Assembly (NCBI GenBank): GCA_005880615.1
Contig: VBID01000114.1
Location: 93,324 to 157,323, forward strand
Length of the DNA: 64,000 nt
Direction of reading: 5' to 3'
Origin: Chloroflexota bacterium
GTDB lineage: Bacteria; Chloroflexota; Dormibacteria; CF-121
The notes under the pieces were generated by a model. That model was not told where the DNA came from. It saw only the letters and a list, made by a program, of their open reading frames with translations, and did no database searches. Of the stretch, positions 17,827 through 56,990 are shown one piece after another. Numbering within the stretch: position 1 is the first letter of the stretch; each line of letters starts with the position of its first letter. Both the position numbers and the translations under genes were made by a program.

Positions 17827-18852
17827 ATGGCTAACCTGCCAGAGGATCTCGAACGCCTACGACTGGCCGCGCACTCCCAGATCGCGGCGGCCCAGGACCC
17901 CACGGCCCTGGAGCAGCTGCGGGTCGCCCTGCTGGGGAAGAAGGGGACGCTGACCGCCACCCTGCGCGGTCTGGGGAGTCTCCCGCCCACCGAACGGGCC
18001 CAGGCCGGTGAGCGGGCGAACGCGGTGAAGAAAGAGCTGGAGGAGGCGATCGCGGCCCGGGCTGCCGCCCTCGAGGAAGCCCGCCGGGCCGGGCTGGCCG
18101 AGCAGGAGTGGCTCGACATCACATTCATTCCGCAGGACGAGGGGTATGGGCATCTGCACCCGATCACGCTCATCATGCGCGAGATCCGGGCGGTGTTCTC
18201 CCATATCGGCTACACGGTTGCCGTCGGCCCCGAGGTGGAGGACGAGTGGCACAACTTCGAGGCCCTCAACATCCCTGCCGGTCACCCGGCGCGGGACGAC
18301 ATGGATAGCTTCTACGTGGGGTCCGGCGCGCTGCTGCTGCGGACCCATACCTCCCCGGTCCAGATCCGCTACATGGAACAGCACCAGCCGCCCATCCGCA
18401 TCATCGCACCGGGCCGCGTCTATCGGCGAGACTACGACGCGACCCACCTGCCGCAGTTCCACCAGGTCGAGGGGCTGTGCGTGGATAGCGACATCCGCCT
18501 GTCGGACCTGAAGGGCACGCTGGAGTATTTCGCTCGCTCGATCTTTGGCGCCGAGCGCCGGATCCGGTTGACGGGCGACCACTTTCCCTTCACCGAGCCA
18601 AGCGTCGGGGTGGCGGTCTCCTGCGGGATCTGCGGCGGCGCCGGCTGCTCGAGCTGCAAGCGCGGCTGGCTGGAAATCCTGGGGGCGGGGATGGTCCATC
18701 CACAGGTGCTGCGCAATGGCGGCATCGATCCCGCTCGGTACTCGGGTTTCGCCTTCGGCATGGGCCCCGACCGGATCGCCATGCTGAAGTACAACCTGCC
18801 CGACATCCGGAGCATCGTCGAGCCCGACGTGCGGTTCCTGAGGCAGTTCTAG
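17827..18852 (+). CDS. pheS: Phenylalanyl-tRNA synthetase alpha subunit
   Basis: Class II motifs, FTEPSVGVAVSC...GWLEILGAGMVHPQVL. Confidence 0.9.
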   Translation: MANLPEDLERLRLAAHSQIAAAQDPTALEQLRVALLGKKGTLTATLRGLGSLPPTERAQAGERANAVKKELEEAIAARAAALEEARRAGLAEQEWLDITFIPQDEGYGHLHPITLIMREIRAVFSHIGYTVAVGPEVEDEWHNFEALNIPAGHPARDDMDSFYVGSGALLLRTHTSPVQIRYMEQHQPPIRIIAPGRVYRRDYDATHLPQFHQVEGLCVDSDIRLSDLKGTLEYFARSIFGAERRIRLTGDHFPFTEPSVGVAVSCGICGGAGCSSCKRGWLEILGAGMVHPQVLRNGGIDPARYSGFAFGMGPDRIAMLKYNLPDIRSIVEPDVRFLRQF

Positions 18853-40847: not shown

Positions 40848-41293
40848 GCATCGACCAGGAGGGCTACGGCTACCGCCCCGACGAGCGCGGTGTCGATCGC
40901 CTGATGGAAGACCTGCGAACGCTTTCGCCAGCGGGCATCGACCGCGCGGCCTGGGGGTGGGATTCGCACGAGGGCGGGCACTCGGTGGAACGCTTCCGCG
41001 ACGCCGAAAAAGCGGCCCTCCGCGTCATCGAGCAGTCGAATCGTGGCCCCGCCTGGGAACAGGTGCGGCGCTCCATCCTGGACCTGACCGAAGGGCGTTC
41101 CTCGCTGGTGTCCTGGAAGATCGAGCATGGGGACCCCGGCCACAAGGCGGAGCAGGCCGCCCTGGGCGCGGCCCTGGCGTTAGTGGGGGGAGAGAAATTG
41201 CCCCACAAGGAATTCGTCAGCCTGGTCCGCCCGATGGCGGAGGCGCTGCCCTGGCTCCTGCCGGAGGTCGCACCCGAACCGCGCCGGTCGTAA
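40844..41293 (+). CDS. Hypothetical protein in the infB-rbfA operon
   Basis: GTG overlaps the infB stop (GTGA). No recognisable domain. Translation begins MSIDQEGYGYRPDERGVDRLMEDLRTLSPAGIDRAAWGWDSHEGG. Confidence 0.5.
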   Translation: MSIDQEGYGYRPDERGVDRLMEDLRTLSPAGIDRAAWGWDSHEGGHSVERFRDAEKAALRVIEQSNRGPAWEQVRRSILDLTEGRSSLVSWKIEHGDPGHKAEQAALGAALALVGGEKLPHKEFVSLVRPMAEALPWLLPEVAPEPRRS

Positions 41294-41300
41294 GAGACAC

Positions 41301-41328
41301 CCTTCCCTCCCCCCTGAAGCGAGGGGAA
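41301..41328 (+). repeat. GC-rich hairpin (divergent member of the CCCTCCC...GGGAGGG family) in the rbfA leader
   Basis: CCTTCCCTCCCCCCTGAAGCGAGGGGAA folds as CCCCT-gaagcg-AGGGG. Confidence 0.35.
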
Positions 41329-41390
41329 ATGTTGGCGCGGCGATGTCCTGAGCTTAGGTGGGAGCGCAATGGGGGAGAATAGGTCCCGTG

Positions 41391-41753
41391 GGAACGCACC
41401 GCGTGGAACGGGTGGCGGCGCAGCTGCAGAAGGAGATCAGCGAGATCATGCGGCGCGACCTCAAGGATCCGAGGGTCTCCATGTGCAGCATTACCCAGGT
41501 CAAACTGTCCCCCGACCTGCGTAATGCCACCATCCGGGTGAGCGTCGTCGGGGAGCCGGATAGCCAGCAGGCGGCGATCGAGGGCCTGCAGCGGGCGCGG
41601 GGCTTCATCCGCCGTGAGCTGGGGGCCCGGTTGACCAACCTCCGCTTTTCCCCAGAGCTCCGGTTCGAGCTGGACCTGTCGATCGCGTACAGCGTGCGCG
41701 TCAGCCAGCTCTTGCGAGAGGTGCTTCCCAGCGACCAATCAGCGAATGGCTGA
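41391..41753 (+). CDS. rbfA: Ribosome-binding factor A
   Basis: GTG 41391 after GGGGGAGAATAGG. RVERVAAQLQKEISEIMRRDLKDPRV...VKLSPDLRNATIRVSV. Confidence 0.85.
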   Translation, partial: GTHRVERVAAQLQKEISEIMRRDLKDPRVSMCSITQVKLSPDLRNATIRVSVVGEPDSQQAAIEGLQRARGFIRRELGARLTNLRFSPELRFELDLSIAYSVRVSQLLREVLPSDQSANG

Positions 41754-42750
41754 GCTCTCTCCCCCGCGCCCGGAGGTGGCCGAGGCGGCCCCCCGCATCT
41801 GGTCGATTGTCGCGTCGGCCACGGCATTGGGAGCGATCTGTCACAAAGACGCCGACGGCGACACGCTGGGGTCGGCGCTGGCGTTCCGGTTCGCCCTCCA
41901 GCCACTGGGCAAGCGGGTCAGCGTGGTCGCCTCGCCGCCGGTCCCGCAGGCGTGGTGGTTTCTGCCGGGAATCGAGACGGTGAACGCCACCTCCCTGCCC
42001 TCGGGCGGCCCCCTGTTCATCTTCGACTCGACCGGACCGGAACGGGCCGGGATTCACGCCGACACCATCCGGCGGGCGCCGGTCGTGGTCAACATCGATC
42101 ATCACATCTCCAACCCTGGTTTTGGATCGGTGGACCTGGTCATCACCGAGGCCGCCTCGACCGGGGAGATCGTCTTCGACTTGCTCAAGGCCTGGAAGGT
42201 CCAGATCCCCCCCGAAGCCGCGGCCAACCTGTACGCCACCATCCTGTCCGACACGGGCGGTTTCCGGCACGACAACACCTCCGAGCGCGCGCTGCGGGCG
42301 GCCGCCGAGCTGGTTTCGCTGGGGGCCGACCCGGCGCTGATCGCCCGCGGTCTGTTCAAGAGCCGGCCGGCGTCGACGCTGCGGATGCAGGGCCGGATCC
42401 TGCAGAGCCTCCATTTCGAGTGCGGGGACCGGTTGGTCTGGGGGGCGATCACCCAGGCCGATCTGCGCGACACCGGCGCCTTGACCGAACAGGCCGATGG
42501 CGCCATCGATCAGCTCAACACGGTGCGGGGAGAGGAGATCGCCATCCTGTTCAAGCAGGTCAGTCCGGTGCTGACCAAGGTCAGCATTCGGACGCGCGAG
42601 CAGGTGGACGCCGCCGCCCTGGCGGCCGAGTTCGGGGGAGGCGGACACCGCCGCGCCTCGGGCCTCGAGCTGGAGGTACCGCTGTCCGAGGCGGAAGGCC
42701 GCGTGCTGCAAGCGGCGCGGCGGGTGCTTGGCTGCCCGGAGCCCGACTGA
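41746..42750 (+). CDS. nrnA: DHH/DHHA1 phosphoesterase (NrnA-like oligoribonuclease/pAp phosphatase)
   Basis: DHH motifs (ICHKDADGDTLGSALA, NIDHH) and DHHA1 GGGH. Confidence 0.8.
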   Translation: MAELSPPRPEVAEAAPRIWSIVASATALGAICHKDADGDTLGSALAFRFALQPLGKRVSVVASPPVPQAWWFLPGIETVNATSLPSGGPLFIFDSTGPERAGIHADTIRRAPVVVNIDHHISNPGFGSVDLVITEAASTGEIVFDLLKAWKVQIPPEAAANLYATILSDTGGFRHDNTSERALRAAAELVSLGADPALIARGLFKSRPASTLRMQGRILQSLHFECGDRLVWGAITQADLRDTGALTEQADGAIDQLNTVRGEEIAILFKQVSPVLTKVSIRTREQVDAAALAAEFGGGGHRRASGLELEVPLSEAEGRVLQAARRVLGCPEPD

Positions 42751-43643
42751 CCGTCTCCACGAAGGTTCACGCCGGCCTGCTCAACATCGCCAAGCCTCCG
42801 GGCGTGACCTCGTTCGGCGTCGTCCACCGGGTGCGCCGGCTGACCGGGGTGCGCCGGGTCGGCCACGGCGGCACCCTGGACCCGGCGGCCGACGGGGTGC
42901 TGCCGGTGCTCATCGGACCGGCCACCCGACTGACCGAGCTGGTGCACGAGTGGCCAAAGACCTACCGGGCCACCCTGCAGCTGGGGGCGACATCGACCAC
43001 CTATGATGCCGAGGGCGTGGTCACCCCGCGGTCGGATCCCAGCCGGGTGAACGAGGCGATGATCACCGCCCTGCTGCCGGACTTCGTGGGGCACATCGCG
43101 CAGGTGCCACCTCTCTATTCGGCGCTCAAGGTGGGAGGCGAGCCCCTCTATCGAAAGGCGCGGCGCGGGGAGACCGTAGCACTGGTCGCCCGACCCGTCC
43201 AGATCATCGGGATAGCGCTGCGGTCTTTCGACCAGGCGACCGGTCGGGCCGTGATCCATGTCCAGTGCGGCCGGGGTGCCTACGTTCGCAGCCTGGCCCA
43301 TGACCTGGGGGCCCGACTCGGGTGCGGCGCCTATCTGGCGGCATTGACCCGCACGGCGGTGGGGCCACTCCAGCTGGCGGACGCCGTACTGCTGGGAACC
43401 CTGGAGCAGGCGGGCCCGAACTGGGAGCGCTGGCTGCTGGCGCTGGACCTTCCGCTGCGCGACTGGGCCGCCATCACGGTCGACGCCGGGCAGGCCCTGG
43501 CGCTCAGCCATGGCCAGCCGATGGGACCGCAGCCCGTGGCGGCCGGCCGCTACCGGGTGATCGATGAGACCGGCCGGCTGCTGGCCTGGGGTGTGATCGA
43601 TGCCGCGGGGCGGTTTGCGCCGGCCGGGGTTTTCCCGCCGTGA
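42729..43643 (+). CDS. truB: tRNA pseudouridine(55) synthase
   Basis: HAGLLNIAKPPGVTSFGVVHRVRRL...GHGGTLDP catalytic Asp motif. TTG 42729 is the only canonical start before the conserved block, and it overlaps nrnA by 22 nt. Confidence 0.85.
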   Translation, partial: WLPGARLTVSTKVHAGLLNIAKPPGVTSFGVVHRVRRLTGVRRVGHGGTLDPAADGVLPVLIGPATRLTELVHEWPKTYRATLQLGATSTTYDAEGVVTPRSDPSRVNEAMITALLPDFVGHIAQVPPLYSALKVGGEPLYRKARRGETVALVARPVQIIGIALRSFDQATGRAVIHVQCGRGAYVRSLAHDLGARLGCGAYLAALTRTAVGPLQLADAVLLGTLEQAGPNWERWLLALDLPLRDWAAITVDAGQALALSHGQPMGPQPVAAGRYRVIDETGRLLAWGVIDAAGRFAPAGVFPP

Positions 43644-44575
43644 GCCTGACCGTCCGCTTCGGGTTCCCGGATCCGGGGATGTTTGGCCCGGTGCACGCCA
43701 CCATTGGCACCTTCGATGGCCTGCACCGGGGCCACCTCAGAGTGGTGACCCCGGTCATTGAGGGGGCCCGCGCCGCGGGGGTGGTCAGCCTGGTGGTGAC
43801 GTTTGAGCCACATCCGCGCTGCGTGCTCGATCCCGACCACTGTCCGCAGAACCTGACGACCCTGGATGAGAAGACCTGGTTGCTCGACCAGCTCGGCCTG
43901 GACCACCTGCTGGTCATCCCGTTCACGCCCCAGGTGGCGGCCCTGAGCCCGGCCGACTTCATGCGCCGCCTGACCCGCGGCATGCAACTCCAGCATCTCT
44001 TCGCTGGCTATGACTTCGCCTTCGGGCGGGGCCGCCGGGGCGACCACACGTTCTTGCGCCAGCTGGGTACCCGGCAGGGGTTTGCGCTGGATGTGGTCCC
44101 GGCGCAGGAACGTGGCGGCGAGCCGATCAGCAGCTCTCGCATCCGGCGGCTGCTCTTGCTGGGCCAGGTACGGGCCGCGTCGCAACTCCTCGGCCGCGAC
44201 TACTTCCTGCGCTCGGTGGTGGAGCAGGGGGCCCAGCGGGGCAAAGGGCTGGGATTCCCCACGGCCAACCTGAAGATCACGCCCAACAAGTTGCTGCCGG
44301 CCAACGGGGTGTACGCTGTCCGGGTCGACCTGGAGGGGGCCGAGTATCAGGGCGCCCTGAACCTGGGGTTTCGTCCCACGTTTGGCGGCCATGCCCTGAC
44401 CGTCGAAGTCTTCCTCTTCGACTACCAGGGCGACCTGTACGGCAAACTGCTGACAGTGTTCTTCGTCCAGCGACTGCGGGGGGAGCGGCGGTTCGCCTCT
44501 GTTACCGCGCTCCAGCACCAGATCAGCCGGGATGTGGAGACCGCACGACGGGTCCTGAGCCGCTCGTCATCGTAA
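43640..44575 (+). CDS. ribF: Bifunctional riboflavin kinase/FAD synthetase
   Basis: ATIGTFDGLHRGH adenylyltransferase motif and C-terminal riboflavin kinase domain. Confidence 0.85.
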   Translation: MSLTVRFGFPDPGMFGPVHATIGTFDGLHRGHLRVVTPVIEGARAAGVVSLVVTFEPHPRCVLDPDHCPQNLTTLDEKTWLLDQLGLDHLLVIPFTPQVAALSPADFMRRLTRGMQLQHLFAGYDFAFGRGRRGDHTFLRQLGTRQGFALDVVPAQERGGEPISSSRIRRLLLLGQVRAASQLLGRDYFLRSVVEQGAQRGKGLGFPTANLKITPNKLLPANGVYAVRVDLEGAEYQGALNLGFRPTFGGHALTVEVFLFDYQGDLYGKLLTVFFVQRLRGERRFASVTALQHQISRDVETARRVLSRSSS

Positions 44576-45450
44576 ACCCGGTCGCGGGCGATGGCCGGGC
44601 GCGCCGGTTCTGGGCCCGCGGCGCCGCCGCCTGTGCTGCCGCCGGGGTGAACGTGAACGTCGTCTGGACCACCCGGCGCGGCGCCGCCGCCGAGGCCGCG
44701 GCCACCGCCAACGGGCAAACCGTGATCGCGGTGGGCGGCGATGGCACCATCCACGAGGTGGTGAACGGATTGCTGCGTCGGCCGGGAACGGCGCGGCCCC
44801 GTTTCGGAGCCCTGCCCGCCGGAACGGGCGGCGACTTCTGCCGCAGCCTGCCCGGACCGCGCGACCCGGCCCTGATCCCGGGGTGGCTCCAGGCGTCCCG
44901 GTTCAAAACCATCGACGCGGCGCGCGCCGCCACCTCCAACGGCCGGCGATTCTTCATCAACGCGGCCGATGCCGGCATCGGGGCCCGCATCGCCCGCCGG
45001 GCGGTCGCTGCCCCGGCGCTGCTGGGCGGGACCGCTCGGTACCTTGGCGCCGCCGCCTGGAGCCTCATGGTGCACCGAAACGTGGCGGTGCGCCTCCGCC
45101 TCGACGACGGGCCGACCGAGCGCCTCCGAGTCTGGACCATCGTGGTGGCCAACGGCGGCTATGCCGGCAGTGGCATGTGGCTGGCGCCCGACGCCAGGCT
45201 GGATGACGGGTGGCTGGATGTGGTGATCATCGGCGACATCGGGCGGCCACTGGCTATCCGCAGCCTCCCGCTGCTGTACCAGGGAAAACATGGACGGCTG
45301 GCGCAGGTGCGCTTCGCCCGGGCCCGCCGGGTGGAGATTGAGGCCGAGACCCCCGCCCAGGTCCAGGCCGATGGCGAGCTGGTGGGGGAGACGCCCGCCG
45401 TCTTCGAGGTGATACCGGGAGCCCTGGACGTCCTCTCGTGGGACGGCTGA
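44569..45450 (+). CDS. DAGK_cat-family lipid kinase (YegS/diacylglycerol kinase-like)
   Basis: The conserved N-terminus LVIVNPVAGDGRARRF and the GGDGT motif are in one frame, which has no ATG/GTG/TTG for more than 200 nt upstream of GTG 44647. ATC 44569 is the candidate start, overlapping the ribF stop. Confidence 0.7.
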   Translation: MVNPVAGDGRARRFWARGAAACAAAGVNVNVVWTTRRGAAAEAAATANGQTVIAVGGDGTIHEVVNGLLRRPGTARPRFGALPAGTGGDFCRSLPGPRDPALIPGWLQASRFKTIDAARAATSNGRRFFINAADAGIGARIARRAVAAPALLGGTARYLGAAAWSLMVHRNVAVRLRLDDGPTERLRVWTIVVANGGYAGSGMWLAPDARLDDGWLDVVIIGDIGRPLAIRSLPLLYQGKHGRLAQVRFARARRVEIEAETPAQVQADGELVGETPAVFEVIPGALDVLSWDG

Positions 45451-45638
45451 GCCCGAACCCACAGAAACGAACTTGCATCTCGGATGCGGCCTGAGCCCGA
45501 GGCCGGGCTCCGAGCGTCGTCTCCTGTGCGCGCTCGGTCACGCATCGACGGATGCGCTCCCTCGCCTGCTCGTCGCCTCCTTCGGCTCGGCGCGCCCCGC
45601 ATCTCAATCTGCTTCGTCCGCTCGGTGGATCCGGGCTG
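45450..45638 (+). mobile_element. MITE-like element copy B (about 190 bp, imperfect TIRs)
   Basis: It begins at the DAGK stop codon. The core is about 90% identical to the reverse complement of 13227-13387. Termini AGCCCGAACCCACAG ... CGGTGGATCCGGGCTGG are inverted. Internal direct repeats CGTCGTCTCC and CGTCGCCTCC. Central palindrome CGCATCGACGGATGCG. Confidence 0.5.
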
Positions 45639-45705
45639 GCCAAACAGCTGTTCCCTGTTTTCGGCTGACGGCAAGGACTACCATCGGGTCGAAAAGGAGG
45701 TAACG

Positions 45706-46062
45706 GCCATGGGCAAGTACGCAGTCATGGGCGGCTACACGGCGGAGACCTGGGCCCGCTTCGTTCAGAATCCGGGGGACCGGGCCGCCGCGGTGCGGAA
45801 AGCCGCGGAGAGCGTGGGGGCGAAGCTCGACAGCATTTACTGGACGTTCGGCGACGACGACTATCTGGTGATCGTGGACGCGCCGGATGATGTCACCGCG
45901 GCGGCCGTTTCGGTCGCCGTCGGAAGCTCCGGCGCCCTTCGGAACCTGCGGACCATCAAGTTGATTACGGCCGACGAGCTGCAGAAGGTGCTGGCCAAAG
46001 CCAAGACCGCGGCCGGCGCGTACGTTCCACCTGGGGCCAGGGAGCCCGTCGCCACCCGCTGA
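45706..46062 (+). CDS. GYD-domain protein
   Basis: ATG after AAAAGGAGGT. MGKYAVMGGYTAETWARFVQNP...YWTFGDDDYLVIVDAPDD matches the GYD family. Confidence 0.7.
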   Translation, partial: AMGKYAVMGGYTAETWARFVQNPGDRAAAVRKAAESVGAKLDSIYWTFGDDDYLVIVDAPDDVTAAAVSVAVGSSGALRNLRTIKLITADELQKVLAKAKTAAGAYVPPGAREPVATR

Positions 46063-46083
46063 TCGCGACCCGTCGACCCGAAA

Positions 46084-46117
46084 GGCGGGCGGCCATCGGG
46101 CCGCCCGTTATTTTGTT
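46084..46117 (+). terminator. Intrinsic terminator
   Basis: GGCGGGCGGCC-atcg-GGCCGCCCG followed by TTATTTTGTT, 22 nt after the GYD stop. Confidence 0.6.
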
Positions 46118-46120
46118 CCG

Positions 46121-46783
46121 GTGAAGCCGATCCGAGCCCTGGTGTTCGACTTCGACGGCCTCATCGTCGAAACCGAGGAGCCCATCTTCCGGGCCTGGCA
46201 GCGCATCTACCGCGAGCAGGGGCAGGAGTTGCCGCTCGAGATCTGGGTCACCATCATCGGTACGTCCTCCGGACCCTTCGATCCGATCCAGTACCTGGAG
46301 GAGCGGGTCGGCCGTCCGCTCGACCGGCAGCGTTTCGACGACCTGGAGCGCCGCTACTACGAGGAAGCGACCGCCCTGCAGCGGCTGATGCCGGGGGTGG
46401 CCGAGTACCTGCGAGACGCCCGCCGGTTGCACCTGGGGGTGGGCATCGCGTCCAGCTCCAGGCGCGCCTGGGTCCTCGAGCATCTGAAGCGGTTCGCCAT
46501 CGCCGATGCCTTCGACGCCGTCGTCTGCCGGGAGGACGTGACGCGCACCAAGCCGGATCCGGAACTCTACCTCGAGGCTACAAAGCGACTGACGGTCATG
46601 CCTGAGGAAGCCCTGGCCCTGGAGGATTCCAGCAACGGCATCGCCGCCGCCAAAGCGGCCGGCCTGCGCTGCGTGGCCGTCCCCACCGTGATGACCGCCA
46701 GCCTGGATCTGAGCCGCGCCGACCTGAGGATCCCATCCTTAGGAGCGGTCTCCCTAACTGACCTGCTGGCTCAGATCGGCTGA
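46121..46783 (+). CDS. HAD-IA family hydrolase (beta-phosphoglucomutase-like)
   Basis: VFDFDGLIVETEE (motif I DxD) and later S/T and K-x(n)-D HAD motifs. Confidence 0.75.
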   Translation: MKPIRALVFDFDGLIVETEEPIFRAWQRIYREQGQELPLEIWVTIIGTSSGPFDPIQYLEERVGRPLDRQRFDDLERRYYEEATALQRLMPGVAEYLRDARRLHLGVGIASSSRRAWVLEHLKRFAIADAFDAVVCREDVTRTKPDPELYLEATKRLTVMPEEALALEDSSNGIAAAKAAGLRCVAVPTVMTASLDLSRADLRIPSLGAVSLTDLLAQIG

Positions 46784-47059
46784 TTCTTTTTCGAGCGACT
46801 CACGCACCTCGTGGAGGTACGCCACCAGATCGGCGCTAGAGAGATCGGCCCGGGCGTGCCGCATCCGCTCGACGGCCACGCCGGCCATGAAGCTGGCCAG
46901 TGGGGCAAACCGACGTTCCTGCGTGTGGGCCGCCACCCTGGCCAGGTCCAGGATCTCGGCCGCCACGTCCGGGTCAAGCTCCGGAGGATCAATGGCCGCT
47001 TGTCGGCGGAAGGCAGCCTCGACCAGCCGCCGGCCCAGCGCCGTCAACCAATCATTCAT
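46754..47059 (-). CDS. Hypothetical protein, divergent from the fdh operon
   Basis: ATG at 47059 (- strand). No recognisable domain. Overlaps the HAD gene 3' end convergently by 30 nt. Confidence 0.4.
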   Translation of the reverse strand: MNDWLTALGRRLVEAAFRRQAAIDPPELDPDVAAEILDLARVAAHTQERRFAPLASFMAGVAVERMRHARADLSSADLVAYLHEVRESLEKESADLSQQVS

Positions 47060-47071
47060 GGTTCAGACAGT

Positions 47072-47101
47072 TTGACATGATCGCTATCTGGTCCTTATCA
47101 T
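47072..47101 (+). promoter_or_regulatory. Sigma70-like promoter (TTGACA-N17-TTATCA) upstream of fdnG
   Basis: TTGACA at 47072-47077 and TTATCA(T) at 47095-47101, about 40 nt upstream of ATG 47139. Confidence 0.4.
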
Positions 47102-47138
47102 CAACGGGTTCGCGGCCGGGGAAGATGAGGTAGGGCGA

Positions 47139-50100
47139 ATGCCTGAACTTACGCGCCGGGCTTTTTTGAAACTGAGCGCCGCGGGGACCGGCGCCGCCGG
47201 GCTCACCGCCCTGGGGTTCGATACCGCGTCAGCGGTCCAGGTCACCCAGAACTTCCGCATTGCCGGGGCGCGCGAGTCGCACTCGGTCTGCCCTTACTGC
47301 GCGGTCGGCTGCGCGCTGGTCGCGTACACGCAGGACAATGCCGACGGCAGCCGCCGCCTCCTGCAAATCGAGGGCAACCCGGACAGCCCGGTGAACGAAG
47401 GCCGCCTGTGTCCCAAGGGCGCTACCGCCATGCAGCTGGCGACCAGCGCCCGGCGAGTGGAATCGCCGATGTACAGGGCGCCGGGCAGTGACCACTGGCA
47501 GAAGATCACCTGGGACGACCTGCTGAACAAGCTGGCTCAGCGCATCAAAGACGCCCGAGACGCCACCTTCGTCGCCCAGGATGGCAGTGGGAACACCGTC
47601 AACCGCACGGAGGGGATCGCCTTCGCCGGCGGCGCCGCCTTCAGCAGCGAAGAAGGGTACTTCGCCACCAAGGTGATGCGCGGCCTCGGCCTGGTCCATC
47701 TCGAACAGCAGGCACGGGTTTGACACGGGCCCACGGTGGTCAGTTTGGCCGCCACATTCGGGAGAGGGGCCATGACCAACCACTGGCGCGACATCAAGAA
47801 CGCCGACCTGATCCTGATCAACGGCGCCAACCCGGCGGAAGCCCATCCGGTCGGCTTTCAATGGTTCGTCCAGGCTAAGCTCGATCCCCAGCGTGGCCCG
47901 GGCGCCGGCGGCGGCGCCAAGATCATCCACGCCGACCCGCGCTTCACGCGCACGTCGGCGTTGGCCGATATCTACGCCCGCATCCGAACCGGCACCGACG
48001 TCGCCTACTTCGGCGGGCTGATCAACTACGTGCTGCAAAACAACCTCCATCACGAGTCGTACGTCACCAATTACACGAACGCCTCCTTCCTGGTGAAGAA
48101 GGAATACGGGTTCACCGATGGGCTCTTCAGCGGCTACGATCCCAAGGCCCGCAAGTACAACACCGCCTCCTGGGGCTACCAGATCGATGACGCCGCTAGC
48201 GTCGCTTATAACGCGGCCCATCCGCCGGCCGGCGGCGCGGTCGCCACCCTGGCCAAGCGCGACCTGACCTTGCAGGACCCGCAGACCGTGTTCCAGCTCA
48301 TGAAGCAGCACTATTCCCGGTACACGCCAGAGATGGTCTCGCGGATCACGGGCATTCCGCAGGACCAGTTCTTGCGGATCGCCAAGCTGGTGGGGGAGAT
48401 GGGGCAACCCAACAAAGTGATGACGATCGTCTACGCGGTCGGCCTCACCCACCACACGACCGGGGGCGAGCTGATCCGGTCGGGGGCCGTCCTCCAGTTG
48501 CTGCTGGGCAACATGGGCCGCCCCGGCGGCGGCATGAACGCCGAGCGCGGTCATGCCAATATCCAGGGTAACACCGACCACGCCATCTCCTGGGAGATCC
48601 TGCCGGGGTACCTGCAAATCCCGGCGCCGCAACGCAAGACCATCGACGAGTACGTGGCGGCACAAGCACCCAAGAAGCTGGACCCACAATCGTGGAACTT
48701 CTTCGGAACCAACTACAAGAAGTTCATGGTCAGCCTGCTGAAGGGCTGGTACGGGGACGCCGCCACCAAGGACAACGACTTCGCCTTCAATTTCATCCCC
48801 AAACCGGGCCAGAACTCGTCGTGGATGTCCATCTACGACCAGTCGCTGAAGGGCAAGATGCAGGGCCTGATTCTTTCGGGGATGACGGCGACCAGCATCG
48901 GCCCTGATTCGAACCGGGTGATGGAGGCCCTGGCCAACCTGAAGTGGCTGGTCGTGATGGACGCGCTGCCGACCACCAGCTCGGAGTTCTGGCGCCGCCC
49001 CGGGGCCAGCCCGGCGTCTATCCAGACCGAGGTCTTCATGGTGCCGACTACCCACTGGATCGAGAAGGACGGCTCCTTCACCAACAGCGGCCGGTGGGCG
49101 CAATGGAAGGAGCAGGTCCTGCCCCCACAGGGGCAAGCCCGGCACGATCACTGGATCCTGGCCGACCTCTTCCAGCGGGTGAAGACCCTCTACCGGCAGC
49201 AGGGCGGCAAGTTCCCGGACCCGATCATCGCCCTGACCCTCAAGTACCAGGACCCGGCCAAGCCGCAGCTGGACGAGATCGCCCAGGAGATCAACGGCTT
49301 CGATCTGACCACCGGCAAGCGGATGAGCAGCTTCGCCAACCTGAAGGACGATGGGACCACCACCGCCGGTGACTGGATCTACACCGGCAGCTACCCGGAC
49401 AGCGGCAACCTGATGAAGCGGACGGACGGCATTCAGGATGTGAAGACCAACGACCCGACCGGGATGGGGTTCTTCCCCAAGTGGGCCTGGTCCTGGCCGC
49501 TCAACCGCCGGGTGCTGTACAACCGGGCCTCGGCCGACCTGGAGGGCAAGCCCTGGGACCAGACCCGCCCCGGCATTACCTGGAACGGAAGCAAGTGGGT
49601 CGGGGACGTGCCCGACTACCCGGCCACCATGAAGCCGTACACCCTGGATCCGAAGGCGTGGCTGCCGTTCATCATGACCGGCGAGGGGACCGGCCGCCTG
49701 TTCAGCACCTCAATGCTCGACGGGCCCCTCCCCGAGCACTACGAGCCGGTCGAAGCACCGGTGGCCAACCCCCTTCATCCAGGCCAGTCGGCCTCCCCGG
49801 TGGCCTTCCTCTATTCAGGGGGCGGCTCGTTCGGAGCGGCCAAGGACAGCTTTGGGACGGTCGCCGACTACCCGTACGTCGCTACCAGCTACCGCCTGAC
49901 CGAGCACGAGCACTATGTCACCCAGCACGTGCCCCTGCTGGTCGGGCTGCAGCCGCATCCGTTCGTTGAGGTCCCCGAGGAGCTGGCCAAGGAGAAGGGC
50001 ATCCAGACGGGCGACCGGGTGCGGGTGACGTCCAAGCGCGGCAAGATCGAGGTCCTGGCCCTGGTCACCAAGCGGCTGGCAGCCAGCACCATCGACGGCA

Positions 50101-50276
50101 AGAAGGTCTACACCATCGGCATCCCGATCCATTGGGGATTCGTGGGAGTGGCAGCCGACCAGGACCCGAGCAAGGGCGCCAACTGGCTGGCCAATGCGCT
50201 GACCCCCTTCGTGGGCGACGCCAACGCCTACACGCCCGAGTTCAAGGCCTTCCTGGTGGACCTGAAGAAGATATGA
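47139..50276 (+). CDS. fdnG: Formate dehydrogenase-N/O-type alpha subunit, selenocysteine-containing (in-frame UGA at 47721-47723)
   Basis: Tat signal RRAFLKLSAAG. The two ORF-track ORFs (47139-47723 and 47736-50276) are in the same frame, separated only by TGA. Across the junction the sequence QQARV-U-HGPTVVSLAATFGRGAMTNHW matches the E. coli FdnG Sec196 context. A hairpin GGUGGUC-AGUUU-GGCCGCC begins 11 nt after the UGA, consistent with a SECIS element. Confidence 0.85.
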
Positions 50277-51055
50277 TCAGCACCCTCGTCCGGACCGACC
50301 CCTGGCCACTCCGACGGCAGCGGACCGACGAGCTCTTGACCCGCTATGCCTTCGCGAGCGAGCTGCTCGGCTTCTACCGGTCGCTGCTGCCCGTCCAGGA
50401 GAAGGCCTACCGCGCGGCCGAAGAGGATCATCCGGGCCCGACCGATCTCCCCAGGTACGTGGTGGATCGGGTGATGCCCACCGTGATCGACGTCACGGTC
50501 GCCGACGGGCCCCGGCGGCTCCGCGATGGCGTGGTGGAGCGCTTCTGTTCAGCCGACCTACCCGACCTGGTAGGCCGCTGGCTGAGCGGCGCGGCGCAGA
50601 CTCCCTTTGAGGTTTTCCTGGCCCGCGCCTCGGCCAGCCCGGTGCTCGAGGCCCTGAAGGGGGAACGCGAAAGCCCCCTGAATGATCGACACTGCCCGGC
50701 CTGTGGGGGGCTGCCCCAGTTGAGCTACTTTGCCGTCACCGGGGAGGCGCTGGTCACCGGCCCCCGCTACTTGCTCTGCTCCCGGTGCGGGCGGACCTGG
50801 GTGTTCAGCCGAATGGTCTGCGCCGGGTGTGGCGAACGGTCAGGAAACCAGATGCCGATCTATCGCGAGGAGGCCCAATTCCCGCACGTCCGGATCGACG
50901 CCTGCCAGGCCTGCCAGCACTACCTGCTGACCTTCGACCTGCGCCAGGACACGGCCGCCGTGCCGGTGGTCGACGAGCTGGCCTGCCTTCCCCTCGACCT
51001 GTTCGCCCGCGAGCGGGGGTTCACCAAGATCACGCCAAACCTGTTGGGGAATTGA
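50273..51055 (+). CDS. fdhE: Formate dehydrogenase accessory protein FdhE
   Basis: Four CxxC pairs (CPACGG...CSRCG...CAGCGE...CQACQ). ATG overlaps the fdnG stop. Confidence 0.8.
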   Translation: MISTLVRTDPWPLRRQRTDELLTRYAFASELLGFYRSLLPVQEKAYRAAEEDHPGPTDLPRYVVDRVMPTVIDVTVADGPRRLRDGVVERFCSADLPDLVGRWLSGAAQTPFEVFLARASASPVLEALKGERESPLNDRHCPACGGLPQLSYFAVTGEALVTGPRYLLCSRCGRTWVFSRMVCAGCGERSGNQMPIYREEAQFPHVRIDACQACQHYLLTFDLRQDTAAVPVVDELACLPLDLFARERGFTKITPNLLGN

Positions 51056-51056
51056 A

Positions 51057-51827
51057 ATGGCTACACCCGTAGGCTTCTTCACCGACACGACCCTCTGCAT
51101 CGGCTGCAAGGCCTGCGAGGTGGCCTGCAAAGAGTGGAACCAGCTGCCCGACAACCCCATCCAGTTCCGGGACAGCTACGACAACACGGGCCAGCTCGAC
51201 CAGCGGAACTTCCGGCACGTGCGCTTCGTCGAGCAGGCCACCTCCAACCCGGACAAGCCGATCGCCTGGTCGATGATGAGCGACGTCTGCAAGCACTGCG
51301 CCAACGCCAGCTGCCTGGAAGTCTGCCCCACCGATGCCATCATCCGAACCGAGTTCGACACCGTCTACATCCAGCAGGACGTGTGTAACGGCTGCCGCGA
51401 CTGCATCGCGGCCTGCCCCTACGGCGTCATCGGCTTTGACTCCCAGAGCGGCACGGCCAAGAAATGCACGTTCTGCTACGACCGCCTGCAGAACAACAAG
51501 ATGCCTGCCTGCGCGCAGGCCTGTCCGACCCAATCGATCAAGTTCGGCAACCTGGCCGACCTGCGCAAGATGGCGGCCGATCGGGTGCAGGCGTTGCAGG
51601 CGCAAGGCGTCACCCAGGCCCGCATCTATGGGGACACGGAGTACGGCGGCCTGCACGCCTTCTTCCTGCTCACCGACAAGCCGGAAGCCTACGCGCTGCC
51701 CAACGCCGAGAGCGCGGTGCTGCCCGGCCGGAACGACGTTCCCGGGTACCTCGCGGTGGCGGTCACCTCGGTGCTGGCAGCCATCGGCGGCCTGGTCGCC
51801 TTCCGCCGCCGGGGTGAGCGCGCCTGA
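51057..51827 (+). CDS. fdnH: Formate dehydrogenase iron-sulfur subunit (4x[4Fe-4S])
   Basis: CIGCKACEVACK, CKHCANASCLEVCP, CNGCRDCIAACP, CTFC...CAQACP, plus a C-terminal TM anchor. Confidence 0.85.
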   Translation: MATPVGFFTDTTLCIGCKACEVACKEWNQLPDNPIQFRDSYDNTGQLDQRNFRHVRFVEQATSNPDKPIAWSMMSDVCKHCANASCLEVCPTDAIIRTEFDTVYIQQDVCNGCRDCIAACPYGVIGFDSQSGTAKKCTFCYDRLQNNKMPACAQACPTQSIKFGNLADLRKMAADRVQALQAQGVTQARIYGDTEYGGLHAFFLLTDKPEAYALPNAESAVLPGRNDVPGYLAVAVTSVLAAIGGLVAFRRRGERA

Positions 51828-52717
51828 TGCTGACCGAGCATTTCGTCGCCGCGCCGCACTGGGAGTGGTACATCCTGGCCTACTTCGTGGCGGCCGGTCT
51901 CAGCGGCGGCACCTACGTCATTGGGACCATGCTGCGGCTCTGGGGCGATGCCCGCGATCTGCCGGCTTCGCGGCTGGCCTTCTTCATCAGCTGGCCGCTG
52001 CTGCTCGTCTGCCCCATCCTGCTGACGCTGGATCTGGGGCAGCCGACGCGCTTCTGGCACATGCTGATCGACAGCCGAACCGCGGGGCTGGCCTTTAAGT
52101 CCTGGTCTCCGATGTCGGTGGGCGCCTGGGCCCTCCTCATCTACGGGATTTTCAGCACCGTGATGTTCGTGGTCGCTCTGGGAGAAACGCGCTCCACCCC
52201 CGCGCTGTTGTCCCGTGTGTCAAAGGTGGCCGGCACCCTGGCGGGACGGGTCGTCATGGTGGTGGGGGCGCTCTTCGCGCTCTTCGTCTCCGCCTACACC
52301 GGCGTGCTCCTGGCAGTCAGCAACCAGCCGGTCTGGAGCGACACCTGGACCCTCGGCGGGTTGTTCTTGGCCTCCGGTCTGAGCGGCGCCAGCGCGCTCG
52401 TGCTGCTGATGAGCCGGCGCCGGCCGGAAGCTGCGGAGACGGACGAGAAACTCCTGGAGGCCGATCGCTATTTCATCATCCTGGAGCTGGTCCTGATTGC
52501 CCTCTTCTTCGTCACCTTGGGAGGGGTGCTCTCGCGCGTGCTCAGCGGAGGGTGGCTGGTGCTCTGGTTGGTGGTGCTGGCGGGGACGGTGGTGCCGCTC
52601 CTCGTGCATTGGCGGCCCGCCTGGCGGCAACGGATCTCCCGGAACCTGGGTCCCATCCTGGTCCTGCTCGGGGTGCTCGCCCTTCGGGCTGTGGTTATTT
52701 TCAGCCCACAGAGTTAA
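51827..52717 (+). CDS. NrfD/PsrC-family integral membrane subunit of the formate dehydrogenase complex
   Basis: Eight or nine hydrophobic helices. It overlaps the fdnH stop. No cytochrome-b (FdnI-type) His pattern. Confidence 0.7.
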   Translation: MLTEHFVAAPHWEWYILAYFVAAGLSGGTYVIGTMLRLWGDARDLPASRLAFFISWPLLLVCPILLTLDLGQPTRFWHMLIDSRTAGLAFKSWSPMSVGAWALLIYGIFSTVMFVVALGETRSTPALLSRVSKVAGTLAGRVVMVVGALFALFVSAYTGVLLAVSNQPVWSDTWTLGGLFLASGLSGASALVLLMSRRRPEAAETDEKLLEADRYFIILELVLIALFFVTLGGVLSRVLSGGWLVLWLVVLAGTVVPLLVHWRPAWRQRISRNLGPILVLLGVLALRAVVIFSPQS

Positions 52718-52837
52718 CCGGGCCGCGACCCGACCGCGCCCGCCGTTACGGCGGCGTAACGCTTTCGGCTGGGACGGACAGACCCCTCTGGGCCTGCCGT
52801 TCTCTCAGATAGATCCCACGTCAGAGGAGGAAACCTC

Positions 52838-53524
52838 GTGCATCGCACCCTGTGTGCCCTTGCCACCAGCGTGACTTTGGTGGTCGCATTGAACGTCGGC
52901 GCCGCCGCGGCCGGCAACACGCATTCCTCGCCCAAGCCACACGGCCACGGCTCGATCCATGGCCCGGCGAATGGGATTCAGGACAATCAGGACAAGACCG
53001 GGGCCGCGGACCATGGCACCCTACAGTTCGGTCCATTCGCGAGTGGGTCGACCGACTCCGGGACCTGCGGCAACGACTGGGCGAACGACACGTTCAATCG
53101 TTTCTTCACGGTGGTGACCAACGAGGACGGGACTGTCCGGGTGGTCGAGTTCTTCAAGGATGCCACCTTTGTGACCGCTGTCCTCCCTATCACGTCCACC
53201 GGTCCCATCAAGAGCCCTGGCGCGTGCGAGAACGGAGTCAACAACGGGGGCTTGGTGACGCCCGACATCAACGGGCGATTCCAGGGCTATCTCCTGGGCA
53301 GCGTTAGCGGAGCAACGCTCGACCCCCGCTTGGCCAATTGCACCGTTGACACCTGCGGCACCACGGCGAAGTTCATCGCGACGGTATTTGGAGCCGGCGC
53401 CACCTACGACGTGACGACCTTCCTGTTCAACTACAGCTCATCGGATCAGCAGCTGATCCAGCGTCACTGGAAGAATGCCTCCGATGATCGCGGCGGCAAT
53501 CGCGGCGACATTCGCACCAGCTAA
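52838..53524 (+). CDS. Secreted hypothetical protein (signal peptide, 4 Cys)
   Basis: GTG 8 nt after GGAGG. Signal-peptide-like MHRTLCALATSVTLVVALNVGAAAA. No recognisable domain. Confidence 0.5.
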   Translation: MHRTLCALATSVTLVVALNVGAAAAGNTHSSPKPHGHGSIHGPANGIQDNQDKTGAADHGTLQFGPFASGSTDSGTCGNDWANDTFNRFFTVVTNEDGTVRVVEFFKDATFVTAVLPITSTGPIKSPGACENGVNNGGLVTPDINGRFQGYLLGSVSGATLDPRLANCTVDTCGTTAKFIATVFGAGATYDVTTFLFNYSSSDQQLIQRHWKNASDDRGGNRGDIRTS

Positions 53525-53543
53525 CTCAACGTCGGTTGACGAA

Positions 53544-53579
53544 GGGGCTTCGCCCGCGGGGCGAGGCCCTTTTTGTTTG
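53544..53579 (+). terminator. Intrinsic terminator
   Basis: GGGGCTTCGCCC-gcg-GGGCGAGGCCC followed by TTTTTGTTT, immediately after the 53524 stop. Confidence 0.65.
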
Positions 53580-53593
53580 GCCGTGAGATCGGC

Positions 53594-53654
53594 TGAGGGG
53601 GAGCCCGGGCCAGATGATCACCCCCTCTGTGACCTTCCCTTGAGCGGGAGGGAA
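53594..53654 (+). repeat. Two GC-rich hairpins (family members) in the leader of the truncated LLM gene
   Basis: GAGGGGGAG...CACCCCCTC at 53595-53627 and TTCCCT-tgagcgg-GAGGGAA at 53634-53654, followed by GGGGGGAGGGAG. Confidence 0.35.
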
Positions 53655-53693
53655 ATCCTAAAGGGGGGAGGGAGTTATAAGCTCTTGGGGGCT

Positions 53694-54188
53694 ATGGTCA
53701 ATGTCGGGGTAGTCCTTCCGGCCTGGTTCAGCGACGCGGGCGACTACCTGGCCGATGCCCGGGCGCTGGAGGAGGCCGGCGTGCACTCCCTCTGGCTCGA
53801 AGCCAAAGATCGGACTCCCGACCCGGACATGCTGCTGGCCGCCATCGCGGCCGTGACCAGCCGGGTGAAAGTCGGCCTGCGGATGCCGAGCGGCGAGGAC
53901 GCTCGGTTCGCCGTGCGGCTGGACACGCTGCAGCGACTGTCGCGGTTCCGGGCCATCACCGGCCAGGTGCGGCGAGGCGGAGCGGAGCTGATCGCCGGGC
54001 CGCAGCCCGTCGTGCGGTTCATGGTGGTGCCGGTGCCAGCCGATCCGGCGGCCTGGGCCGATACGCTGGACGCCGCCGAAAAACAGGGTGCCGGCGTCCT
54101 GGTGCCCCTCTTTCCCGGCCTGCTCGACCTGTTGCGGCGGCCCGAGCAGGCTGACGACCGCTCGGACCTCATTCTCAGCCAGGGTTGA
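53694..54188 (+). CDS. LLM-class (luciferase-like) flavin/F420-dependent oxidoreductase, N-terminal portion only (truncated, about 164 aa)
   Basis: MVNVGVVLPAWFSDAGDYLADARALEEAGVHSLWL is a typical LLM N-terminus, but the ORF is about half the usual length. Confidence 0.5.
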   Translation: MVNVGVVLPAWFSDAGDYLADARALEEAGVHSLWLEAKDRTPDPDMLLAAIAAVTSRVKVGLRMPSGEDARFAVRLDTLQRLSRFRAITGQVRRGGAELIAGPQPVVRFMVVPVPADPAAWADTLDAAEKQGAGVLVPLFPGLLDLLRRPEQADDRSDLILSQG

Positions 54189-54297
54189 TCTCCCTGGGTT
54201 TCACGGTAAGCCGTATTCGGTATACTTCCGAGCGACTCGGCGCAGGTGTTCGACTTGCCAACGGCACCCGGGCTGAGCAGCCAAAGGAGGTCACAGA

Positions 54298-54561
54298 CTG
54301 GCAGCAACAGCAAAAGTACAGGTCATCGCCGATAATCGTCGCAGCGAGAAGGACACCGGGTCGGCGGAGGTCCAGATCGCCATCTTCTCGGAGCGGATTA
54401 GCCACCTCACCGACCACCTAAAAGACCACAAGCGCGATCAAGGCTCGCGGCGTGGGCTGCTCCAACTGGTGGGGAAGCGGCGCCGTCTCCTGAACTATCT
54501 GCAGCGCGAGGACATCGAGCGCTACCGGGCCCTGGTCGCCAAGTTAGGGCTGCGGAGGTGA
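54298..54561 (+). CDS. rpsO: 30S ribosomal protein S15
   Basis: [86 protein letters not shown] is encoded in the frame +1 relative to the ORF-track ORF at 54185-54421. The frame opens at 54277 with no ATG/GTG/TTG. CTG 54298 lies 7 nt after AAGGAGG (54284-54290). Confidence 0.8.
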
Positions 54562-54761
54562 TGGCCTAGGGTGTATCTCGGCCGTGCGAACGGCCGCCAG
54601 GGTCCCACGGAACGGGTTAGAGATTGGTGCGCGGAGAACGTCAGGCGTCAGCCGACCTTCTTCGGACCCCAACCCCTAACCCTCCTCGAAGCGGGTCACG
54701 TGGGTCGAACTCGATCAACCAAATTGGCCGCGCTCCGGTGCGGCACCCCAGGAGGGTTTTC
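54562..54761 (+). promoter_or_regulatory. rpsO-pnp intercistronic leader with hairpins
   Basis: GGCCGT-gcga-ACGGCC at 54580-54595, then further GC hairpins, then SD CCAGGAGGG before GTG 54762. Confidence 0.35.
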
Positions 54762-56990
54762 GTGAAGCAAACGCAATTACAAATTGGCGGACGGACGCTG
54801 ACGATAGACACCGGTCGAATGGCTGGCCAGGCCAGTGGCGCCGTCCTCATTCGCATGGGAGACACCGTGCTCCTCGTCACCGCCACCATGTCGGAATCGC
54901 CGCGTGAGGGCATCGACTTTTTCCCGCTGACCTGTGACTACGAAGAGAAGCTGTACGCCGCCGGCAAGATCCCCGGTGGCTTCATCCGCCGGGAGGGCCG
55001 GCCCAGCGAAACAGCCGTCCTCAACAGCCGGCTGATCGACCGGCCGGTGCGTCCGCTGTTTCCCAAGGACTTCCGTAACGACGTCCAGGTGATCGCGACC
55101 GTGCTCTCGGTCGACCAGGATGCTGACCCGGCCACCATGGCCATCGTGGGCGCCTCGACCGCGCTGACCATCTCCAAGATCCCCTTCCTGGGGCCGATCG
55201 GTGCCGTGCGGATGGGGCTGCTCGAGGGCGAGTTGGTGGTCAACCCACCGGTGAACCGGATGGAGGAGAGTCAGCTGGACCTTGTGGTGACCGGCACCCG
55301 GGAGGCCATCATCATGGTCGAGGCGGGGGCCAAGGAGGTTCCCGAGGACACCGTGGTCGAGGCCATGCGGCGGGCGCATGGCGAGATCGTGCGCCTGTGC
55401 GACCTGCAGGAGGCCTTCGCCCGCGAGGTGGGGACGCCCAAGGTCCAGGTGACACCGGCGGTGGTCGATGCCGAAGTGGACCAGGCGGTCGACCAGTACC
55501 TGGCCGAGCGCCTGGATGCCGCCCTGTTCAACCCCAGCAAGAGCCTGCGCGAGTCGGCGCTGGATGATCTGAAGAAGGAGACGGTCGCCGAGCTCTCCCC
55601 GCGCTTTGCCGACCGGCTGACCCAGGTGGCCAAGGCCTTCGACGCCAAGGTCAAGCAGCGGGTCCGCCAGAAAATCCTGGACGACGGCATGCGCCCCGAC
55701 GGCCGGCAGACGACCGAGATCCGGCCCATCAGCTGCGAGGTGGGACTCCTGCCCCGGACCCACGGCTCGGCGCTGTTCACGCGGGGCCAGACCCAGGTGC
55801 TGAGCATCGTGACGCTGGGGTCGATCGGGGACAAGCAGAAGCTCGACGGCCTGGGCCTGGAAGAGTCCAAGCGCTTCATGCACCACTACAATTTCCCGCC
55901 GTTCAGCGTGGGCGAGGTGCGGCCGCTGCGGTCTCCCGGCCGCCGGGAGATCGGGCACGGGGCGCTCGCCGAGCGCGCTCTGACCGCGGTCATCCCCACA
56001 GAAGTGGATTTCCCCTACACCATTCGCCTCGTGAGCGAAACGCTGTCGTCCAACGGCTCGACCTCGATGGCCAGCACCTGCGGCGCCAGCCTGGCGCTGA
56101 TGGATGCGGGCGTCCCCACCAAGTCCCAGGTGGCGGGCATCGCCATGGGCCTGATCACCGGGGAGGGCGGCCGGTCCGCCATTCTGAGCGACATCCAGGG
56201 CGTCGAGGACGCGCTGGGTGACATGGACTTCAAGGTTGCCGGCACGGCGACGGGCATTACGGCGCTGCAGATGGACATGAAGGTCAAGGGCATCAGCATC
56301 GAGCTGATCGGCCGGGCCCTGGCGCAGGCCCGCGAGGGGCGGATGTTCATCATGGACAAGATGAACGCCACGCTGGGCAGCCCGCGGACCACCATGTCGG
56401 CCTACGCTCCGCGCATGGTCACCATCCAGATCCATCCCGACAAGATCCGGGAAGTAATCGGTCCCGGAGGCAAGACGATCCGCAAGATCATCGAGGAGAC
56501 CGGGGTCTCCATCGACGTGGAGGATGACGGCCGCGTGATCATCGGGTCGGTCAACGGCGAGGCCTCCGACAAGGCCATCCAGATGATCCGGGACCTCACC
56601 GGCGAAGTCGAGGTCGGCAAGAACTACAAGGGCAAGGTGGTCCGGATCATGCCGTTCGGGGCGTTCGTCCAGATCATGCCCAACACCGACGGCCTGGTGC
56701 ACATCAGCCAGCTGGCGGAGGAGCGGGTGGAGCGGGTGGAGGACGCGGTCCAGGTGGGCCAGGAGATCGAGGTCAAGGTGACCGAAGTCGACAGCCAGGG
56801 CCGCATCAACCTGTCGCGCAAAGCCGTGCTGCAGGAGGCCAAGGGCATCACCGGGGACTGGGTCGTCAGTGCCAGCGATCGGCGGCGTCCAATCGGTGGT
56901 GGGACGGACGGAGGGGCAGGCGGCGGTGGCTACCGCGATCGGGGCCCGCGGCGGGAGTTCGACCGGAGCGGGAACCGGGGCCGGCGCTAG
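54762..56990 (+). CDS. pnp: Polynucleotide phosphorylase
   Basis: Two RNase PH domains, KH ([15 protein letters not shown]) and S1 domains, and an RGG-rich C-terminal tail. GTG 54762 after GGAGGG. Confidence 0.9.

Follow-up and report, generated by a model that had tools for sequence, protein, structure and literature searches.

An In-Frame UGA in a Formate Dehydrogenase Gene from Dormibacteria, Very Probably Recoded as Selenocysteine

Introduction

Does an in-frame UGA in a formate dehydrogenase (FDH) gene end a protein, betray a damaged gene, or specify selenocysteine (Sec)? The question is raised by a locus in a 64,000-nucleotide stretch of DNA, hereafter called the window, from a Chloroflexota bacterium of the Dormibacteria lineage CF-121 (assembly GCA_005880615.1, contig VBID01000114.1, positions 93,324 to 157,323, forward strand). 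At 47139–50276 on the plus strand, a mechanical list of open reading frames (ORFs) breaks an fdnG-like gene, which codes for the FDH alpha subunit, into 47139–47723 (194 amino acids) and 47736–50276 (846 amino acids, with a "GTG start"). The public gene calls for a 112-kb metagenome scaffold (ENA ERZ28573622, scaffold_10), which is the source of the window or identical to it, and for its relatives likewise divide the subunit into proteins of 194 and 834 amino acids. Among bacterial selenoproteins, FdhA was the first to become known and is the one with the widest distribution (PMC13188914); in high-GC bacteria, whose stop codons are most often UGA, annotation pipelines are known to miss the FDH selenoprotein (PMC13449736).

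It is very probable that 47139–50276 is one gene, coding for an FdnG/FdoG-type FDH alpha subunit that is exported by the twin-arginine translocation (Tat) pathway, with Sec recoded at the UGA of 47721–47723 by means of a selenocysteine insertion sequence (SECIS) hairpin. A Sec-encoding TGA with a recoding hairpin in an FDH gene is a well-known arrangement, routinely split by gene finders, and the finding is correct but ordinary. The evidence for this reading, the points that weigh against it, and the competing explanations are given below.

The Alpha Subunit and Its In-Frame UGA

Read in one frame, 47139–50276 (+) forms a complete coding sequence of 1045 codons that ends with the TGA at 50274–50276; its sole internal stop is codon 195, the TGA at 47721–47723, which is followed by His196. 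The DNA at 47712–47756 reads GCA CGG GTT TGA CAC GGG CCC ACG GTG GTC AGT TTG GCC GCC ACA, with the translation ...EQQARV*HGPTVVSLAATFGRGAMTNHW... across the TGA; in the fused reading, the Sec-spanning peptide is predicted as ...QQARV-U-HGPTVVSLAATFGR. The first-pass annotation of the window had described two ORFs in one frame, parted only by this TGA, and translation reproduced its coordinates, frame, and flanking residues throughout.

Both pieces belong to the same protein family. The N-terminal piece scores 221.2 bits with the NCBIfam model TIGR01553 (formate dehydrogenase-N alpha) over profile positions 2–194, and the C-terminal piece alone scores 1024.2 bits over positions 196–1009 (curated cut-off, 814.2), so that exactly one profile position, 195, coincides with the TGA. 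When Cys is put in place of the stop, the fused protein (residues 3–1044) aligns end to end with Escherichia coli FdnG (1KQF, chain 1kqf_A) at 979 bits and 45.7% identity. This alignment, which had been proposed as a check, runs over the full length and places the TGA on the "X" of 1kqf_A that stands for Sec196; the catalytic His after Sec (U-H) and the RGH arginine are both retained. The earlier assignment of codon 195 to Sec is borne out by these two comparisons, as is the likeness of its flanks to the Sec196 context of E. coli FdnG/FdoG, the common peptide being ARV-U-HGPTV.SLA.TFGRGAMTNHW. Codons 194–198 (V-U-H-G-P) also fit the U-H-x-P motif of the FdhA selenoprotein family (PMC13188914, Table 1).

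Further features of the protein agree with the family. The N-terminal 4Fe-4S cysteine motif is present (C51-x2-C54-x3-C58-x32-C91), and it is preceded by a predicted twin-arginine signal peptide, MPELTRRAFLKLSAAGTGAAGLTALGFDTASA, which would extend over 47139–47234 (+). The peptide aligns with the FdnG signal and is matched at residues 4–24, including the twin-arginine sequence TRRAFLK, by TIGR01409 TAT_signal_seq (20.7 bits; cut-off, 16.7). Among the structures, Sec-containing FdhA proteins of the Desulfovibrio type rank after 1KQF, with 814–858 bits. Membership in the actinobacterial FDH subfamily NF041513 was rejected, the two pieces together reaching 893 bits (148 + 745) against a cut-off of 1400.

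For all comparisons with relatives, one genome per species was scanned; 451 relatives were found, and the best 80 were kept, which are 73–94% identical over the C-terminal 850 amino acids. Nearly all of these 80 are soil or sediment metagenome-assembled genomes, labeled as Candidatus Dormibacterota, Chloroflexota, Limnocylindria, Methylomirabilota/Rokubacteria, and a few others. TGA occupies the homologous codon in every one of them. A pattern search detected it in 79, and the remaining relative (L070), which has the TGA as well, escaped that search only because its peptide reads HAPT at this place. A Cys codon at the Sec position occurs in none of the 80, and both flanks of the TGA are conserved at the protein level.

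The division of the gene in the ORF list and in the public gene calls would fit a nonsense mutation, which would leave either a pseudogene or two polypeptides, one of 194 amino acids and another starting at GTG 47736. This explanation is scarcely credible. The TGA is shared by 80 of 80 independent assemblies in which both halves are conserved as protein. The presumed GTG start lies within the hairpin described below and therefore has no ribosome-binding site upstream; moreover, this Val codon is GTC, which is no start codon, in 13 relatives, so GTG 47736 is not a conserved initiation site. Splitting would also cost the enzyme its metal ligand and would part the iron-sulfur domain from the pterin domains of a single fold. 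The finding that had been named beforehand as evidence against Sec, namely, close relatives with Cys and two separately translated polypeptides, is contradicted by these observations. Still less weight, indeed next to none, can be given to a sequencing or assembly error that turned TGC or TGT into TGA. Nothing speaks for it except that the source is a metagenome scaffold, and against it stand contigs from at least four independently assembled samples that encode identical operon proteins as well as the TGA in all 80 related loci, which come from other assemblies.

The Probable SECIS Hairpin

Downstream of the UGA, an 11-nt spacer (47724–47734) leads to a stem-loop at 47735–47753 (+), GGUGGUCA-GUU-UGGCCGCC, in which the two arms form 8 bp around the apical loop GUU. 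It is found in both the minimum free energy (MFE) fold and the centroid fold, and as a 19-nt hairpin it has a ΔG of −10.7 kcal/mol. The first-pass annotation had placed a hairpin of 7 bp with a 5-nt loop at this site; its position 11 nt after the UGA holds, while an extra A-U pair converts the structure into one of 8 bp with a 3-nt loop. Numbered from the U of UGA, the hairpin begins at nucleotide 15 and contains U17, G23, and U24. The loop G-U-U is closed by the A-U pair, and its GU comes from the Ser codon AGT.

This layout is identical to that of E. coli fdnG, fdoG, and fdhF, in which the upper hairpin likewise lies 11 nt after the UGA and carries G-U at nucleotides 23 and 24. In a review of the E. 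coli work (PMC8659212, citing Liu et al. 1998), the rule is a 17-nt upper stem-loop 11 nt from the UGA, and the spacing that had been claimed as typical of a bacterial SECIS thus agrees both with the three E. coli genes and with the published rule. The same review names U17, G23, and U24 as critical nucleotides, U17 and G23 being the contacts of SelB, the Sec-specific elongation factor. The bSECISearch consensus (PMC13188914) comprises a loop of 3–9 nt on an upper stem of 4–16 bp; a G among the first two nucleotides of the loop, with G or U as the next one (N1-G-[G|U]-N-N2); a distance of 16–37 nt from UGA to loop; and an MFE of −7.5 kcal/mol or lower. The window element agrees with all four, having a 3-nt loop on an 8-bp stem, GU in the loop, 19 nt from UGA to loop (the 11-nt spacer plus the 8-nt 5′ arm), and −10.7 kcal/mol.

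The hairpin is constrained at the RNA level. Among the 57 distinct sequences of the alignment, 98.9% of the hairpin cells are paired, a value equaled by none of 500 shuffles, and pairing falls to 25–62% when the partner arm is slid by one to three columns. Three hairpin pairs are altered on both sides. Since the encoded peptide is invariant, only synonymous sites are free to vary; in three of the eight pairs, both partners are third-codon positions. In 13 loci, GTG...GCC is replaced by GTC...GCG, and the mixed combination is never seen. Third-position entropy in the hairpin codons +4 to +10 amounts to 0–0.65 bits, against 1.0–1.5 bits at neighboring four-fold sites. Ser+7 is AGT in 78 of 78 cases, although six codons are open to it and the genome is GC-rich; Val+6 is GTC in 76 of 76, and His+1 is CAC in 78 of 78.

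A full-length match to the Rfam family RF01989 (SECIS_3), which describes the fdnG/fdoG-type SECIS, covers 47718–47776 (+) with 44.4 bits (E = 3.2e-9 when searched locally, 6.9e-7 when searched across the whole window). A default Rfam scan is silent here because this score lies under the gathering score of 63. The same model gives 84.3 bits for E. coli fdnG and fdoG and 44.6–65.9 bits for six of the relatives. The lower score is explained by a lower stem that is not kept and by the replacement of a Pro codon (CCA in E. coli) by an Ala codon (GCC). This change sets a G opposite U17, so that a continuous 8-bp stem with a U-G wobble becomes possible. Judged from these comparisons, the window element is best regarded as a divergent member of the fdnG/fdoG-type SECIS. 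A longer SECIS was also considered, but neither the lower stem of the Rfam structure nor that of the MFE fold (48.1% paired) is conserved, and both were dropped from the element.

Points against Recoding and Sec-Free Decoding

Several observations weigh against recoding. The SECIS_3 score remains below the gathering threshold, and the lower stem of that model is not conserved, with 60.4% of its cells paired and several columns never paired. According to PMC8659212, unpaired lower-stem bases lower read-through by only ~25%. U17 is invariant and stands opposite G31 (U-G in 56 of 57 sequences); it may therefore be wobble-paired instead of bulged, as it is in the Rfam structure of E. coli fdnG, where it faces C. 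The stability of the 61-nt fold does not exceed that of shuffled sequences (z = −0.61), and the invariant peptide accounts for part of the nucleotide conservation. Finally, no selA, selB, selD, or tRNA-Sec gene is found in the 64-kb window, in the 10 kb past each of its ends, or in the flanks of the 80 relatives.

Hairpins of 8 bp and like quality occur at ~0.002 per position (~2 per kb) in the GC-rich window, and 6 of its 1592 TGA triplets carry one exactly 11 nt downstream. Because such hairpins are common and the z-score is low, stability was set aside as evidence. The hairpin on its own is weak evidence; decisive are the comparative data, that is, the TGA in 80 of 80 relatives, the compensatory synonymous changes, and the SECIS_3 match.

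The search for the Sec machinery comprised several steps. In the window, ARAGORN and Rfam detected a tRNA-Val only and no tRNA-Sec, and none of the 80 related loci contains a tRNA of any kind according to ARAGORN. When E. coli SelA, SelB, and SelD served as tblastn queries, the only match in the window was the GTPase domain of infB, a cross-match, and the 10 kb beyond each window end hold housekeeping genes only. In one Methylomirabilota relative (L030), a fusion of a pyridine-nucleotide-disulfide oxidoreductase with SelD (TIGR03169 + TIGR00476) is encoded at 16449–18665 (−), ~4 kb downstream of the FDH operon, where it adjoins genes of the xanthine dehydrogenase family. A "selB-like" match in the same relative proved to be TypA/BipA and was discarded.

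With ~84 kb of the 112-kb source scaffold and the flanks of the relatives free of Sec machinery genes, decoding of the UGA by other means has to be weighed. Near-cognate read-through (with Cys, Trp, or Arg) or a lineage-specific reassignment of the codon would then account for the full-length protein, and the hairpin would merely slow termination. The invariant CAC codon for His+1 would suit such read-through, as the UGA is always followed by C. In E. coli, a C directly after UGA makes the stop leaky. Sec-free decoding is nevertheless very unlikely. UGA is the normal stop of infB, fdnG, fdhE, fdnH, and ftsK in the window, and the internal fdnG UGA therefore requires local recoding and not general reassignment. 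The hairpin keeps the SelB-contact nucleotides G23, U24, and U17 as well as the 11-nt spacing of the E. coli SECIS, and in a lineage lacking Sec, TGC or TGT should have become fixed, as in Cys-type FDHs, whereas TGA is kept in all 80 relatives. From this pattern of conservation we infer that the source organism decodes the UGA as Sec.

Recoding by Sec would proceed as follows. With the UGA in the ribosomal A site, the 8-bp hairpin at 47735–47753 would remain folded just outside the mRNA tunnel of the ribosome, where SelB with its Sec-tRNA(Sec) would bind the apical G23-U24 and U17. Delivery of Sec would compete with release factor 2 and yield the protein of 1045 amino acids instead of the fragment of 194. 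The Sec encoded by UGA 47721–47723 would ligate the active-site metal of a molybdenum- or tungsten-bis-pterin enzyme. Together with an FdhE-like maturation protein, an FdnH-like four-cluster subunit, and an NrfD-type membrane subunit, this enzyme would oxidize formate outside the cytoplasmic membrane and pass the electrons to the quinone pool. By analogy with molybdoenzymes anchored by NrfD/PsrC, extracytoplasmic formate oxidation feeding the quinone pool is the most likely function.

The FDH Operon

Three genes on the plus strand follow fdnG. The first, at 50273–51055, is an fdhE-like accessory gene coding for 260 amino acids with four CxxC motifs; it scores 66.7 bits with TIGR01562 (FdhE), which is below the cut-off, and the public gene calls assign it the Pfam domains FdhE_central/FdhE_C. 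It starts with an ATG at 50273 that shares bases with the fdnG stop (ATGA). This maturation gene is thus situated between the alpha and beta genes, its start being translationally coupled to the fdnG stop, and the order is conserved among the relatives. The second gene, at 51057–51827, codes for an FdnH-like iron-sulfur beta subunit of 256 amino acids. The protein is 36% identical to E. coli FdnH, has the Cys cluster motifs and one C-terminal transmembrane (TM) helix (residues 231–249), and reaches 162.6 bits with TIGR01582 (FDH-beta), below the cut-off of 334.7. The third, at 51827–52717, codes for an NrfD/PsrC-type integral membrane subunit of 296 amino acids with ~8 TM helices, as judged from TIGR03148 NrfD (48.6 bits), the Pfam domains PF03916 (NrfD) and PF14589, and hydropathy.

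This NrfD-type subunit, a member of a heme-free class, occupies the place that the cytochrome b FdnI has in the E. coli operon. Neither the window nor any of the 80 related loci contains a homologue of the di-heme cytochrome b FdnI. An FDH-N/FDH-O complex in the strict sense (FdnGHI/FdoGHI) was therefore rejected, since the FdnI gamma subunit is lacking and an NrfD-type protein stands in its place. The order alpha-FdhE-beta-NrfD is kept wherever the contigs are long enough, in 78, 70, and 60 of 81 sources (the window included); the 78 refer to fdhE after fdnG.

Other genes recur nearby. Divergent from fdnG, at 46754–47059 (−), lies a DUF6457 gene (PF20058 in the public gene calls), a homologue of which adjoins the operon in 40 of 81 sources; downstream, at 53475–54188 (+), lies a luciferase-like (LLM) ORF with a counterpart beside the operon in 41 of 81. 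Their recurrence suggests accessory roles for both. The sulfurtransferase gene fdhD is located directly upstream of fdnG (0.7–3 kb) in 24 relatives (including L013, L023, L025, L030, L031, L032, L036, L039, L058, and L062). It is absent from the window and must therefore be encoded elsewhere in the source organism.

The operon sits inside a housekeeping cluster, infB-rbfA-nrnA-truB-ribF ... rpsO-pnp (38964–56990). This context is common only to the closest relative (L001), and the other relatives have different neighbors, which suggests that the FDH operon moves as a cassette.

Comparison with Known Systems

The nearest well-known enzymes are FdnG and FdoG of E. coli (1KQF). The window protein shares with them the TIGR01553 family, the length class, the Tat signal, the N-terminal 4Fe-4S motif, and Sec-His at the same alignment column, and the two kinds of SECIS agree in the 11-nt distance from UGA to hairpin and in a GU(C/U) apical loop with G23 and U24. 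They differ in that protein identity is limited to 45.7%, that SECIS_3 gives 44.4 bits for the window as opposed to 84.3 for E. coli, and that the E. coli stem contains a bulged U where the stem of the window element can be continuous over 8 bp; nor is the lower stem conserved in the window element. The membrane partner of E. coli FDH-N is the cytochrome b FdnI, whereas it is of the NrfD type in the window, where in addition fdhE is inserted between the alpha and beta genes.

The periplasmic FdhAB enzymes of Desulfovibrio/Nitratidesulfovibrio vulgaris and D. gigas (6SDR, 1H0H) are similar in possessing a Tat-exported Sec alpha subunit of the same family, alignable end to end with 814–858 bits. 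These enzymes are soluble heterodimers without a membrane anchor. In contrast, the FdnH of the window has a C-terminal TM helix and is followed by the NrfD-type subunit. Such a subunit is known from other molybdoenzymes, such as polysulfide reductase PsrABC and tetrathionate reductase TtrABC, in which a pterin-containing catalytic subunit and a four-cluster subunit are likewise combined with a heme-free, quinone-interacting membrane subunit of the NrfD type. Those enzymes, however, are reductases of sulfur compounds, whereas the catalytic subunit of the window is a predicted formate dehydrogenase with Sec.

A parallel in annotation is offered by the mycobacterial Sec-FDH (PMC13449736), which is also a single FDH selenoprotein of high-GC bacteria that is split or truncated at the UGA by standard annotation. 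To detect the mycobacterial SECIS with Rfam, the threshold was lowered to 45 bits (PMC13449736). Unlike in the window, where no such genes lie near the FDH, selC-selA-selB are located near the mycobacterial FDH, and the window protein fails the actinobacterial model NF041513 (148 + 745 against 1400).

Metabolic reconstructions based on the split annotation (194 + 834 amino acids) would miss or misjudge a functional FDH and the selenium requirement that it implies. With the present locus, the fdnG-type SECIS would be extended to poorly studied soil lineages; a literature search yielded no paper joining selenocysteine with Dormibacterota. The gathering threshold of Rfam SECIS_3 misses elements of this kind, which score 44–66 bits across the relatives. 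Three features lend the locus a modest interest: its lineage, the partner of the NrfD type, and a SECIS variant that scores below threshold and shows no obvious bulged U.

Whether these traits define a distinct FDH architecture, different from FDH-N proper and spread widely among uncultured lineages of the soil (Dormibacterota/Chloroflexota, Methylomirabilota, and others), is a more tentative matter, and we consider it possible but rather doubtful. Such an architecture would combine a Sec-containing FdnG, FdnH, an FdhE whose gene lies between those of these two subunits, and a heme-free anchor of the NrfD type with a SECIS that lacks the bulged U and the lower stem. If this were true, the SECIS would imply a SelB that recognizes a fully paired hairpin, and selenium-dependent formate oxidation to menaquinone could be an unrecognized energy input for trace-gas-scavenging soil bacteria.

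Minor Observations

Two further observations concern the window outside the FDH operon. The gene rpsO (ribosomal protein S15), at 54283–54561 (+) just upstream of pnp, is missing from both the ORF list and the public gene calls. It lacks a start of the ATG, GTG, or TTG kind; the probable start is CTG 54298, which comes 6 nt after a strong Shine-Dalgarno sequence, AAAGGAGGT (54283–54291), and the stop is at 54559–54561. At 1994–2060 (+), a weak Rfam match to the skipping-rope RNA (27.3 bits; gathering score, 36.7; E = 0.037) is probably due to chance.

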